This document shows positions 3,017-5,877 of a stretch of DNA of 64,000 nucleotides, in pieces. Origin of the DNA: Candidatus Uhrbacteria bacterium (GTDB taxonomy: Bacteria; Patescibacteriota; Patescibacteriia; JACQRZ01); assembly GCA_016206155.1 (NCBI GenBank), contig JACQSC010000004.1, positions 147,591 through 211,590 on the forward strand, written 5' to 3'. Positions within the stretch are counted from its first letter, which is position 1; every line of letters starts with the position of its first letter. Both the position numbers and the translations under genes were made by a program. The notes below the pieces were generated by a model, which saw nothing but the letters and a program-made list of their open reading frames with translations, was not told the DNA's origin and did no database searches.

Positions 3017-3038
3017 TGTATATACTTTATAGTATATG
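3017..3038 (+). promoter_or_regulatory. Palindromic candidate operator TATATACT-N4-AGTATAT, overlapping the -10 region and start codon of the DinJ-like antitoxin.
   Basis: Inverted repeat visible in the sequence. TA operons are typically autoregulated at such palindromes. Confidence 0.3.
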
Positions 3039-3305
3039 AATACGGTTATCAGTGTAAAATTAGACCTTTCAGTACGGGATTCGGCGCGGGAGGTTGCGCA
3101 GAGCGCGGGATTGACATTAAGCGCACTTATCAATGCGTACTTGCGACAGGTCATTGCTACGCGCCACATCGAACTCTACGCCCCGGAACCCATGACACCA
3201 AAACTTGAAAAGATGATCGGCAGAGCGGAGAAGGATATCGCCGCCGGGCGCGTGAGCAAAAAATTCGCGCGCGCAAAGGACTTTTTGGCAGACCTTAAAA
3301 CGTAG
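3036..3305 (+). CDS. Type II antitoxin, DinJ/RelB-like (ribbon-helix-helix).
   Basis: 89 aa. The N-terminal RHH-like segment resembles DinJ. It sits immediately upstream of a YafQ/RelE-like toxin with a 6-nt gap. Confidence 0.7.
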   Translation: MNTVISVKLDLSVRDSAREVAQSAGLTLSALINAYLRQVIATRHIELYAPEPMTPKLEKMIGRAEKDIAAGRVSKKFARAKDFLADLKT

Positions 3306-3311
3306 CGCCGT

Positions 3312-3572
3312 ATGACCGTTCAATATACGCCCGACTTCAAGAAACAATACAAAAAATTGCAAAAGAAGTTTCGGGCGCGATTTGATGAGCGGCTTAACCT
3401 TTTTCTTGAACATCCAACGCATCCACTCCTTCGCGTTCATCCGTTAAAGGGATCGTTTGCCGGATATTGGAGCATGAACATCACCGGTGATATTCGTGCA
3501 TTGTACAGAATGGATGGCAACGATAGTATTATTTTTGCTCTCATTGGCACCCATAGCAGACTTTACGGGTAG
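3312..3572 (+). CDS. Type II toxin, YafQ/RelE family mRNA interferase.
   Basis: HPLKGSFAGYWSMNITGDIRALYR...IGTHSRLYG matches the YafQ/RelE fold signature (HPLxG...GTHxxLF). Confidence 0.75.
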   Translation: MTVQYTPDFKKQYKKLQKKFRARFDERLNLFLEHPTHPLLRVHPLKGSFAGYWSMNITGDIRALYRMDGNDSIIFALIGTHSRLYG

Positions 3573-4202: not shown

Positions 4203-4274
4203 GCCGAGGTAGCTCAGTGGTAGAGCGAAGGACTGAAAATCCTTGCGTCGGGAGTCCGATTCTCCCCCTCGGCA
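4203..4274 (+). tRNA. tRNA-Phe (anticodon GAA).
   Basis: Acceptor GCCGAGG/CCTCGGC, anticodon loop CTGAAAA, T-loop GAGTCCGATTCTC. CCA is not encoded. Confidence 0.85.
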
Positions 4275-4310: not shown

Positions 4311-4419
4311 GAGGGAGCGACAGAACTGCTTCTGTCGTGTGGAGGATTGAAGACCCCATTTTTTTATTCTTTTCCAGTAAACAGGCGATAAATTCTTGTG
4401 CTCAGTCAATCGTATTTCT

Positions 4420-4461
4420 GACTCTCGTGAGAGAGTCTCCACTTTGGTTTCCCAAAGTGGA
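4420..4461 (-). other. Two consecutive hairpins just 3' of the 16S rRNA: a 10-bp stem tccactttgg/ccaaagtgga and gactctc-gtga-gagagtc. They are likely processing or termination structures.
   Basis: Inverted repeats seen directly downstream (on the minus strand) of the 16S 3' end. There is no U-tract. Confidence 0.35.
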
Positions 4462-4634
4462 TCGACTAGTATCGAGATGTTACTCTCGATTGTGTCTCCC
4501 TAGAAAGGAGGTGATCCACCGACAGCTTCCGCTACCGGTGCCTTGTTACGACTTAGCCCTTGTTACCAATCTTACCCTAGGTCCTCGAACGAGGCACTTC
4601 AGGTACTACCGGCTCCCTTGGCTTGACGGGCGGT

Positions 4635-5568
4635 ATCGGGATCGTTCTCTTGTCGTAACAAGAACGTCCCACACCACTGGGCAAACGGTTTTCCCGTACC
4701 CTAGCGGTTCCTATAGTGCTTTTTTGAAAAAGCTCGCATCTGGTCGCGAATATGCAGGACAGCATTAAACCCTTCATCAGTAAGATGTTTTTTCTCTTTA
4801 ATCATAAAACATGCTTGACGAAAGAGTGAATAGACATCCTTCTTCTTCCCTTGAAGTTTGTGCTTGTCGAAGAAGGGGATAACAAACTGACAAAGATCGC
4901 GAACACTGCCTACTTTATACTTCGCGTGAGGCGCCCAATCATATCGCTTGTAGTGGAGATCATACAACGATCCGCATCCGATTGTTGCTTGGATGCGTTC
5001 TAATATCTCCCGATCGTCAATGCGTAGTTCAATCTCGAAAAGAGGACGAAGGTCCACTTTTCGTTTCATGGTTGTATGTTTCGATGCACCAATACAGAAA
5101 CATCCTTCGCCATCAACGAATCCAGCGACATAATTGGGGTCGAGCTTTTGAGCACTAAAGGTTCGGTCCTTCTCCGATTGCGTATCGGATACTATGACCT
5201 CTGCTGACTTCTTGCATTGCGTCGACATATCGTTACCGCTCTGTCTTAATTTCTCAGTGTTAGTATACTACAATTTTATAGTACCCCCAAGAAATACAAT
5301 ACAAGATCTCCCTGGGTCATGTCTTGTCCCGTTTTCCTTCATCTCCGGCATTCTTTACATGCGTACGTTTATTAATGAAAAGATGACTTCTCCCTATACA
5401 CGCGGGATCGTCACGTACCCATGCCTCAACAAATGCTCAAGCTGAAAGATGCTACTTTCATTCTCCACATGTATCCTCGCGGATACATGCTATAATTTCG
5501 CTTCAAAGAATCTTTTCTTTCTTTGGTGTGATTTTCACACACTGGCACAAAACACTACCAGGCGCTCC
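4635..5568 (-). mobile_element. 16S intron 1 (~934 nt, at about E. coli position 1391/1392) carrying a single-motif LAGLIDADG homing endonuclease.
   Basis: The exon sequence GACGGGCGGT at 4625-4634 resumes as GTGTACAAAATCTGAGAACGTATTCACCG at 5569. The intervening sequence has no rRNA similarity. Confidence 0.8.
4701..5228 (-). CDS. LAGLIDADG homing endonuclease, single motif (YVAGFVDGEGCF), encoded in 16S intron 1.
   Basis: 175 aa with a canonical LAGLIDADG block near the N-terminus, on the same strand as the rRNA. Confidence 0.85.
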   Translation of the reverse strand: MSTQCKKSAEVIVSDTQSEKDRTFSAQKLDPNYVAGFVDGEGCFCIGASKHTTMKRKVDLRPLFEIELRIDDREILERIQATIGCGSLYDLHYKRYDWAPHAKYKVGSVRDLCQFVIPFFDKHKLQGKKKDVYSLFRQACFMIKEKKHLTDEGFNAVLHIRDQMRAFSKKHYRNR

Positions 5569-5877
5569 GTGTACAAAATCTGAGAACGTATTCACCGCAC
5601 CATGGCTGATGCGCGGTTACTAGCGATTCCGGCTTCATGGAGGCGAGTTGCAGCCTCCAATCCGAACTGGGGTCACTTTTTAGGGATTAGCTCCGTCTCG
5701 CGACTTGGCGACCCGTTGTGGTGACCATTGTAGCACGTGTGTAGCCCAGGGCGTAAGAGCCATGCTGATTTGACGTCGTCCTCGCCTTCCTCCCCGTTAA
5801 CCGAGGCGGTTTCTCGTGAACAATGCAACACGAGATGAGGGTTGCGCTCGTTTGAGGACTTAACCCGACATTTCACA

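Follow-up and report, generated by a model that had tools for sequence, protein, structure and literature searches.

What kind of element interrupts the decoding centre of a CPR bacterium's 16S rRNA gene, and how might it leave the RNA and spread? This question is raised by the window, by which we mean the whole 64,000-nucleotide stretch of DNA analysed here. An Rfam search of the window identified, on its minus strand, a bacterial SSU rRNA (about 7947->4503), and pairwise alignment to E. coli rrs located within it an insertion of exactly 934 nt (5568->4635, minus strand) between E. coli 16S positions 1397 and 1398. A preliminary description had given the same length and coordinates and had correctly seen that the insertion splits a conserved decoding-centre block of 16S rRNA; the position "near 1391" that it assigned has to be replaced by 1397/1398. 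The same 16S gene contains a second intron (7176->6175), which is group I (RF00028, 53.2 bits). The boundaries of the 934-nt insertion are defined by three features.

4635..5568, minus strand: whole intron, very probably group II (IIC-like), 934 nt, starting with GGAGCG and ending with GAU; from the E. coli alignment, Rfam group II matches and 66 related loci.
5569..5574, minus strand: IBS1, the last six 5'-exon bases GUACAC (16S 1392-1397); from the E. coli alignment, complementary to and covarying with EBS1.
4634..4634, minus strand: first base of the 3' exon, A1398, the expected IBS3; from the E. coli alignment.

On the RNA strand, with a slash marking each junction, the boundaries read ...UUUUGUACAC/GGAGCGCC...GAUCCCGAU/ACCGCCCGUCAAGCC, and the exon flanks on the plus strand are GACGGGCGGT at 4625-4634 and GTGTACAAAA at 5569-5578. 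The base preceding ACCGCC is U, so C1397 must derive from the 5' exon. A Thiomargarita-like splice site after 1396 was ruled out for the window by this U and by the pairing of EBS1 through C1397. The same arrangement was found in all 67 loci for which both exon boundaries were located (the window and 66 of 80 related loci), and the flanking exons form a good SSU rRNA (1213 bits, Rfam). It is hardly credible that the insertion is an assembly chimera, in which foreign DNA was joined to the 16S gene at conserved primer-like blocks: such blocks are classic break or mis-join points in metagenome assemblies and many endonuclease homologues lie on contigs of only about 0.9-1.1 kb, but the sequence spanning both junctions (5640->4518) recurs with 100% identity in L082, an independent Logan assembly, leaving no sign of the junction artefact that the preliminary description had considered, dozens of long contigs from other genomes carry the same architecture at the same site, and EBS1, which lies inside the intron, is complementary to the exon next to it.

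We then asked to which class the intron belongs. Two Rfam group II models matched it in the correct order on the rRNA strand, RF01998 (group-II-D1D4-1; 55.8 bits, gathering score 35) and RF02001 (group-II-D1D4-3; 43.8 bits, gathering score 32), and RF01998 also matched six of the eight relatives tested. A check with group I models, as earlier proposed, implied a group I intron with a LAGLIDADG endonuclease, a reading that we regard as very improbable. LAGLIDADG genes usually reside in group I introns, and the other intron of this 16S gene is one, but within 4635-5568 the Rfam group I models, including RF00028, gave no match even at E<=10, whereas both group II models exceeded their gathering scores and covariation supports domains 5 and 6 and the EBS1-IBS1 pairing. 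An intron-like insertion with a LAGLIDADG gene in 16S, as first described, is thus upheld, with group II as its class.

The ends of the intron agree only in part with the group II boundary consensus: the 3' end, AU, fits 3' AY, and the 5' end, GGAGCG, departs from GUGYG, as do those of relatives (GGGUCG, GGGUGC or UUGCG). Traits shared with group IIC and the rns-1396 family are a CGC triad, an ORF in domain 4 and a ribozyme of about 400 nt without the ORF; those that differ are insertion after 1397, not 1396, and a 5' linker of at most 1 nt. Taken together, we consider the element very likely to be a mobile group II intron with an IIC-like ribozyme and a single-domain LAGLIDADG gene in domain 4 instead of a reverse transcriptase.

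The ribozyme core upstream of domain 5 comprises the following parts.

5249..5568, minus strand: domain 1, approximate limits, containing the RF02001 match (5486->5326, 43.8 bits).
5396..5401, minus strand: EBS1 GUGUAU in the loop of the hairpin GAUCCC-GCGUGUAUA-GGGAG (5409->5390), forming six pairs with IBS1 GUACAC.
5166..5248, minus strand: domain 2 hairpin, J2/3 and domain 3 (AGAAGUCAGCAGAGGUCAUAGUA...GAAGGAC); RF01998, 55.8 bits.
4710..5161, minus strand: domain 4, enclosing most of the ORF; basal stem CCUUUAGUGCU (5161->5151) with AGCACUAUAGG (4720->4710), read from sequence.

Related stretches occur at least 497 times in GTDB species genomes, and the 80 loci kept for comparison are, by record title, nearly all from Patescibacteria; such scattered occurrence is consistent with a mobile element. 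Relatives retain the 5' motif GCGCCUGGYAG and the GGUGAAAAUCC hairpin of domain 1. Among relatives, an exon ending in GUACUC goes with EBS1 GAGUAC or GAGUAU in the homologous loop, and one ending in GUACAC with GUGUAC or GUGUAU. EBS1 thereby tracks the natural A/U polymorphism at 16S position 1396, with zero exceptions among alignable loci of group A, the window's lineage of 42 loci, which splices after 1397, so that EBS1 pairs with the 5' exon over its full six bases. No alignment column could be confidently matched to EBS3, the expected partner of A1398. In relatives, covariation is seen in the basal helix of domain 3 (GGUC/GACC, GUUC/GAAC, GCUC/GAGC and GUCC/GGAC) and, in the correctly anchored subset of loci, in the basal stem of domain 4 (CAAAGG/CCUUUG, CGUAAG/CUUAUG, CAUAGG/CCUAUG and UGUAGG/CCUACA).

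The Rfam domain 5/6 model, RF00029, gave no match in the window at E<=10 and none at its gathering score in eight relatives, so we established these two domains through folding and covariation.

4674..4707, minus strand: domain 5, 34 nt, loop GAAAA, with the CGC triad at 4706->4704, a bulged A at 4702 and a UU bulge at 4684-4683.
4637..4671, minus strand: domain 6, a hairpin whose candidate branch point, a bulged A at 4642, lies 8 nt upstream of the 3' splice site.

The minimum free energy fold of domain 5 has a z-score of -5.0. Across 24 distinct sequences, 99.7% of cells were paired and 8 of the 14 pairs showed compensatory changes; registers slid by one to three columns left only 34-47% of cells paired. 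The CGC triad is invariant and its G-U/G-C pair is kept, and the domain departs from the usual form in having an invariant extra bulged A and a two-base UU bulge where an AC-type bulge is usual. The canonical register, with a 9-bp lower helix and no extra bulge, was ruled out, as the G/A variation of column 11 is matched in column 29 (C/U) and not in column 28. Similarly, the basal helix of domain 6 covaries in relatives (GGGA/UCCC, GAGA/UCUC, CGGA/UCCG and GGAA/UUCC), and its bulged A holds its position through compensatory changes in groups A, B and C. This covariation support for domains 5 and 6 outweighs the missing RF00029 match.

These results bear on whether the ribozyme has decayed into a plain intervening sequence, which host RNases would excise without ligation to leave a fragmented 16S, or which would lie in a non-functional gene. 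The non-consensus 5' end, the atypical domain 5 and the RF00029 result all point that way, and many CPR rRNA insertions fit no intron model (PMC11270868). We nevertheless judge decay improbable: the catalytic elements have been kept with compensatory changes across lineages whose endonucleases share only 40-60% identity, EBS1 follows the exon sequence, the exons still score as SSU rRNA at 1213 bits, and a 16S rRNA left permanently cut between C1397 and A1398, within the decoding centre, would probably be deleterious.

The intron thus very probably retains a group II ribozyme, and within it lies the following open reading frame.

4701..5228, minus strand: 175-aa single-domain LAGLIDADG_1 ORF, starting at an ATG in the 3' strand of domain 2 and terminated within domain 5 by the stop codon UAG (4703->4701).

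The protein contains YVAGFVDGEGCF and has one match to Pfam LAGLIDADG_1 (residues 35-140; 68.3 bits against a cut-off of 23.1; E 1.2e-18), which confirmed the intact, single-motif ORF reported from the first reading. A search for homologues of the endonuclease returned 267 at E<=1e-5, and D39-G40-E41-G42, which includes the catalytic Glu of the motif, is invariant among 25 of them. The PDB yielded sequence matches to I-TnaI and, down to E 1e-37, to halves of proteins of the I-OnuI/I-LtrI family, with the whole protein aligning to each half of two-domain enzymes. AlphaFold2 predicted an alpha-beta-beta-alpha-beta-beta-alpha fold (H31-41, E42-50, E58-69, H70-83, E87-92, E101-106 and H109-122) with a mean pLDDT of 88.9, mostly above 90 in the core and of low confidence at residues 1-28. 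Its best structural matches by Foldseek, each with probability 1.00, were I-LtrI, I-OnuI and I-TnaI, the last of these homodimeric (PDB 5GKK; TM 0.82 normalised to target). The dyad symmetry of the intron-less target reaches at best 5 of 11 matches, 3 bp upstream of the insertion site; more symmetry would be expected for the predicted homodimer, although this result says little either way.

Besides filling domain 4, the ORF shares sequence with domains 2, 3 and 5, and the CGC triad of domain 5 serves as its final sense codon. On any one RNA molecule, translation would therefore be in competition with ribozyme folding.

We observed an intact ORF and the features of sequence, structure and covariation given above, and we infer catalysis, exon ligation, branching versus hydrolysis, endonuclease activity and mobility in the following scheme. 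Transcription of pre-16S rRNA would run through the intron, the ribozyme would fold, and EBS1 GUGUAU would pair with GUACAC (16S 1392-1397), so setting the 5' splice site. Catalysis would come from the CGC triad of domain 5, with the bulged A at 4642 or water attacking the 5' splice site. The joining of C1397 to A1398 would then restore the decoding-centre sequence GUACACACCGCCCGUC, with the ligated junction reading UUUUGUACAC/ACCGCCCGUC (GUACAC/ACCGCC). The endonuclease, translated from the ATG at 5228, would dimerise, and the dimer would cut intron-less 16S rDNA at the insertion site. Repair from an intron-bearing copy would spread the intron at the DNA level, that is, by homing and not by retrohoming.

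The strongest challenge to this scheme concerns its last steps. The ribozyme may splice while the protein is mainly a maturase or an inactive remnant, in which case the intron would be immobile and vertically inherited. Some LAGLIDADG proteins do act as maturases, a role established for fungal mitochondrial introns; moreover, the target dyad symmetry is weak (5 of 11), and a single rRNA operon is usual in CPR genomes, so homing within a cell would probably have no target. We consider this unlikely, if less so than decay of the ribozyme. Neither the catalytic Glu of the motif nor the residues beside it vary, the predicted fold resembles active nucleases, and another assembly has a 99.9% identical 5' part of the intron beside a different domain 6 and 3' exon. 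The distribution is also patchy across phyla, with insertion sites unlinked to host phylogeny (PMC11270868). A mobile intron with a homing endonuclease remains the reading that we prefer.

To place this intron among known systems, we compared it with published insertions. Tsurumaki et al. (2024, J Bacteriol, PMC11270868) reported 53 group II-like insertions in CPR 16S genes, 39 of which have LAGLIDADG_1 and none a reverse transcriptase, and found them in these genes only at about position 1400. The site in the window corresponds to that position, and the earlier statement that rRNA insertions are characteristic of CPR agrees with this catalogue, the host being a CPR bacterium: an identical protein is listed under 'Candidatus Uhrbacteria bacterium'. 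The insertions named '16IS9' (PMC11270868) resemble the window intron in host clade, gene, site, partial matches to Rfam group II models, single-domain LAGLIDADG_1 protein and lack of a reverse transcriptase; we see no real difference in kind, and the window intron is an example of them. That paper gives no account of domains 5 and 6, EBS1-IBS1 pairing, precise splice sites or ORF-ribozyme overlap, and it reports no test of splicing or of this enzyme.

The other close parallel is 'rns-1396', a group IIC intron in the 16S of Thiomargarita namibiensis and other Thiotrichaceae (Liu et al. 2026, PMC13190283), which is inserted between 16S positions 1396 and 1397 and has a small domain 1, a single-motif endonuclease in domain 4, no EBS2 and, in all members, a 5' linker. 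It shares with the window intron an IIC-like backbone, a single-motif endonuclease in domain 4 and the same conserved 16S block, and its EBS1 loop, (G)UGUAC, is similar to GUGUAU. By comparison with its published description, the window intron splices 1 nt downstream, after 1397, has almost no 5' linker, resides in a Patescibacterium and has in domain 5 an additional bulged A, itself invariant, and a bulge of UU in place of AC. The T. namibiensis 16S intron of the rns-1396 family is reportedly the subject of work by Salman et al. in PNAS in 2012.

Among our relatives, group B comprises 15 CPR genomes with the junctions UUGUACA/.../CACCGC, which are exactly those of rns-1396. Its 5' linker is about 5 nt, against at most one extra base in group A. 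We tentatively propose, as a reading somewhat more apt to be wrong than right, that the window belongs to a separate, re-targeted bacterial IIC/LAGLIDADG lineage. Three Patescibacteria sisters would splice after 1395, 1396 and 1397, with EBS1 and the branch-A distance fitting each; the 1397 lineage would have lost the 5' linker, kept the branch A and gained a non-canonical domain 5; the 5' strand of that domain also carries the final codon (CGC, the triad) and the stop codon of the endonuclease gene; and translation and catalysis would be mutually exclusive on each RNA, a built-in switch.

Similar to the window intron, group II introns of fungal and green-algal mitochondria have LAGLIDADG in place of a reverse transcriptase and reside in rRNA genes, and their enzymes belong to the same broad I-OnuI/I-LtrI-like lineage. 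They differ in class (IIA1, IIB1 and IIB2 as opposed to IIC-like), in insertion site, in their mostly double-motif, monomeric enzymes and in their organelle hosts. Mullineux et al. in 2010 are said to have described a group II intron with a LAGLIDADG enzyme in Leptographium rns, and Toor and Zimmerly in 2002 reportedly described group II introns that encode LAGLIDADG enzymes. Bacterial enzymes group with the fungal ones (Liu et al. 2026, PMC13190283). With canonical group IIC introns of bacteria, the window intron has in common a small ribozyme, the CGC triad, the conserved J2/3-domain 3 region matched by RF01998 and a short EBS1; the canonical introns have no EBS2 and, according to PMC13190283 and PMC4748821, often splice by hydrolysis in vitro. 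It differs from them in having no reverse transcriptase and in lying inside an rRNA gene, not after a terminator hairpin; its mobility is presumably DNA-based. I-TnaI and I-ShaI are likewise single-domain enzymes of about 150-175 aa encoded by rRNA introns, but these are group I introns of 23S rRNA; I-ShaI, from a CPR 23S gene and the one CPR enzyme tested, cuts its site and dimerises.

The class, the site and the CPR distribution of such introns are already published, a point that the preliminary description had missed, so the current understanding is unchanged. Group II introns with LAGLIDADG instead of a reverse transcriptase are rare and illustrate the reshuffling of ribozymes and mobility genes; to our knowledge, bacterial ones are known only at this one 16S rRNA block. 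Being intact and compact and having dozens of relatives, the window intron is well suited to a first biochemical study of a CPR intron of this type, in which the splicing chemistry, the cleavage site and the overlap of ORF and ribozyme would be of interest. The insertion also splits the universal 1391/1392 reverse-primer site, so that organisms carrying it may be missed or mis-sized in amplicon surveys.

An Rfam search of the window located a bacterial SSU rRNA gene on the minus strand, at about 7947 to 4503, and pairwise alignment of this strand with the annotated E. coli rrs gene revealed two large insertions:

7176 to 6175, minus strand: insertion 1, 1002 nt, after E. coli position 788
5568 to 4635, minus strand: insertion 2, the intron analysed here, 934 nt, after E. 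coli position 1397

The same alignment reproduced the exact ends of the 934-nt insertion in the preliminary description, but moved its site from near position 1391 to between C1397 and A1398. On the RNA strand, the 5' junction joins exon UUUUGUACAC to intron GGAGCGCC and the 3' junction joins intron GAUCCCGAU to exon ACCGCCCGUC. The first and last bases of the intron differ from the adjoining exon bases, so that if the mature rRNA carries the universal GUACACACCGCCCGUC, the C1397/A1398 splice site is unambiguous.

The preliminary description correctly recognised a CPR host and an intron whose endonuclease is intact, but neither its exact position nor its intron class held. It had proposed group I models as a check; none in Rfam matched within 4400–5750 at E ≤ 10, and two group II models did, both above their gathering scores, on the rRNA strand and in the correct order:

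5486 to 5326, minus strand: RF02001 (group-II-D1D4-3), 43.8 bits, gathering score 32
5248 to 5166, minus strand: RF01998 (group-II-D1D4-1), 55.8 bits, gathering score 35

RF01998 also matched six of the eight related loci tested. The Rfam domain 5/6 model, RF00029, had no match in the window (E ≤ 10) or in eight relatives (gathering score), and we therefore examined the 3' end of the intron directly.

The endonuclease has 267 homologues at E ≤ 1e-5; an identical protein at NCBI is titled 'LAGLIDADG family homing endonuclease [Candidatus Uhrbacteria bacterium]'. When one genome per GTDB species was scanned by pattern, at least 497 stretches proved to encode a relative, and 80 loci were kept, nearly all from Patescibacteria by record title. 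Both exon boundaries were located in 66 of the 80, which together with the window fall into three groups by splice junction:

Group A, 42 loci including the window: splice after 1397; exon ...GUAC(A/U)C, intron GG...(G/A)AU, exon ACCGCC
Group B, 15 loci: splice after 1396; exon ...UUGUACA, intron AAUUAAAUGCGCC...AAU, exon CACCGCC
Group C, 10 loci: splice after 1395; best read as exon ...UUGUAC, intron AAAUAAU...AGA, exon ACACUGCC

Group A introns have at most one extra base before the conserved GCC at the 5' end, and group B introns have a linker of about 5 nt.

The last 80 nt of the window's intron form two hairpins (−35.2 kcal/mol, z-score −5.0):

4707 to 4674, minus strand: domain 5, from folding and covariation
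4671 to 4637, minus strand: domain 6, in which A4642 is bulged, 8 nt upstream of the 3' splice site

Domain 5 has a 5-bp basal helix containing the CGC triad with a G-U pair. A bulged A separates this helix from a 4-bp helix, and a UU bulge on the 3' strand separates the latter from a second 4-bp helix, which is capped by a GAAAA loop. Across 24 distinct sequences from groups A and C, 99.7% of cells were paired, 8 of the 14 pairs showed compensatory changes, and the CGC and the bulged A were invariant. Slid registers of domain 5 paired only 34–47% of cells. Group B has a canonical domain 5 with an AC bulge and without the extra A. Compensatory changes also support the basal helices of domain 6 (GGGA/UCCC, GAGA/UCUC, CGGA/UCCG and GGAA/UUCC), domain 3 (GGUC/GACC, GUUC/GAAC, GCUC/GAGC and GUCC/GGAC) and domain 4 (CAAAGG/CCUUUG, CGUAAG/CUUAUG and CAUAGG/CCUAUG), and the distance of the domain 6 bulged A from each group's own 3' junction is constant in groups A, B and C. 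The intron ends in AU, and its 5' end, GGAGCG, does not match the consensus GUGYG. We conclude that this is very probably a group II (IIC-like) intron with a LAGLIDADG homing endonuclease; a group I intron is an improbable reading of a region in which no group I model matched at E ≤ 10.

The 5' splice site could be placed independently. About 167 nt from the intron's 5' end lies a hairpin loop, GCGUGUAUA, in which GUGUAU (5401 to 5396, minus strand) is complementary to the exon's final six bases, GUACAC. Where the group A exon ends in GUACUC, the homologous loop is GAGUAC or GAGUAU in every alignable locus; in the three loci ending in GUACAC (the window, L001 and L003), it is GUGUAC or GUGUAU. 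This compensatory EBS1–IBS1 change follows the natural variation between A and U at 16S position 1396, and it places the splice site after 1397. The group C loop, GUACA(A/G), pairs with UUGUAC, and the group B loop, (G)UGUAC, pairs with GUACA, each fitting the junction of its group.

The endonuclease gene overlaps the ribozyme at both ends, so that domain 4 is almost entirely coding:

5228 to 4701, minus strand: endonuclease ORF, 175 aa

The ORF starts (ATG, 5228) within the 3' strand of the domain 2 hairpin. The conserved J2/3–domain 3 RNA, AAGAAGUCAGCAGAGGUCAUAGUAUCC, is translated as residues KKSAEVIVS here and, in a different frame, as QEVSRAHST in other homologues; conservation there is thus at the RNA level. 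At the 3' end (...CAC UAU AGG AAC CGC UAG), the CGC triad of domain 5 doubles as the final sense codon, and the stop codon (4703 to 4701) includes the bulged A; in the related locus L052, the homologous ORF continues through domain 5 into the domain 6 loop. Translation and ribozyme folding would therefore have to compete on one molecule.

As first described, the 175-aa protein has a single LAGLIDADG domain (Pfam LAGLIDADG_1, 68.3 bits, cut-off 23.1), in which D39-G40-E41-G42 is invariant among 25 homologues. In PDB sequence searches, the two halves of I-OnuI/I-LtrI family enzymes each matched the protein (E values down to 1e-37), as did the single-domain I-TnaI. Foldseek concurred with probability 1.00 for the predicted structure (AlphaFold2 mean pLDDT 88.9, most of the core >90, residues 1–28 of low confidence). 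A single domain implies that the enzyme would act as a homodimer, as demonstrated for the CPR enzyme I-ShaI, although I-ShaI is the product of a group I intron in 23S rRNA; the intron-less target has little dyad symmetry, which is not decisive. Splicing in vivo, and present or recent mobility through endonuclease-driven homing, are suggested by three features of the intron: its conserved and covarying elements, its intact catalytic motif and its patchy distribution. We consider it unlikely that the insertion is a dead intervening sequence in a fragmented rRNA, or that the protein is a maturase only. An assembly chimera, a concern raised in the preliminary description, found no support: between 5640 and 4518, a stretch that includes both junctions, the window and the independent Logan assembly L082 are 100% identical, and the intron is not an assembly artefact.

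Similar introns have been described. A survey of 380 CPR 16S genes (Tsurumaki et al. 2024, PMC11270868) counted 53 group II-like insertions, 'including partial hits', each located near position 1400, with LAGLIDADG_1 in 39 and reverse transcriptase in none; its authors proposed DNA-based homing. The rns-1396 family of Liu et al. 2026 (PMC13190283) has an IIC backbone, a single-motif enzyme in domain 4, IBS1 and IBS3 without EBS2, and a 5' linker in all members, whereas group A, including the window, has at most one extra base. Their text puts rns-1396 in Thiotrichaceae, but their Table S4 also has one Saccharimonadota genome; the Thiomargarita 'rns-1396' junctions given in that table are identical to those of group B. 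Given these matches, the window's intron is a further member of a described kind. Neither paper was found to report three adjacent splice sites (1395, 1396 and 1397) each with a matching EBS1, a 1397 lineage nearly devoid of the 5' linker, a domain 5 with an extra bulged A and a UU bulge, or an ORF that overlaps domains 2, 3 and 5; such points refine the known kind and do not make a new category.

Several further features were observed among the relatives. In a clade with Taylorbacteria, Kaiserbacteria and Vogelbacteria loci among its members (L010, L016, L019, L020, L024, L027, L029, L035, L041 and L052), intron nt 17–22 (GAUCGAGUACGCUAG) exactly repeat the EBS1 hexamer GAGUAC; L008, L009, L013, L023, L030, L038 and L048 have GAGUAU at the equivalent place, and the window's intron has no equivalent near its 5' end. 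The first domain 1 hairpin loop (GGUG...AAAUCC) evidently tolerates insertions, which are present in L007, L008, L012, L019, L030, L074 and L076; in L007 (Taylorbacteria), whose intron is 1430 nt long, the extra sequence reaches several hundred nt. Most homologues (P0002–P0120) lie on contigs of about 0.9–1.1 kb, roughly intron length, so the conserved flanks in 16S are evidently where assemblies break, which leaves the family under-linked to host genomes in public assemblies. The Logan contig L081 (1–1282, SRR12113431) is 99.9% identical to the window's intron from the 5' exon through domain 5 (5579 to 4666), but its domain 6 (CGGA...UCCG, still with the bulged A) and its 3' exon differ, and about 90 nt further lies another insertion with a LAGLIDADG-like ORF (LVDGEGYF). 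Such a contig could be a chimeric unitig; otherwise, the intron has recently been transferred or recombined between 16S backgrounds.

Around the 16S gene, no 23S or 5S rRNA matched anywhere in the 64-kb window, so the rest of the rRNA operon does not follow it. A tRNA-Phe (4203–4274), encoded on the opposite strand, lies just past the 3' end of the 16S gene, a tRNA-Ile(GAT) lies at 2850–2926, and a type II toxin–antitoxin pair (3036–3572, plus strand) adjoins the rRNA gene:

3036 to 3305, plus strand: DUF6364/RelB-like antitoxin
3312 to 3572, plus strand: YafQ/ParE/RelE-type toxin (YafQ_toxin, 40.1 bits)

Insertion 1 is another intron of the 16S gene and matches the group I model RF00028 at 53.2 bits. 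A single in-frame UGA (6814–6812) divides its LAGLIDADG_3-like frame into ORFs 7150 to 6812 and 6811 to 6254; the frame could be a pseudogene or subject to read-through or recoding.
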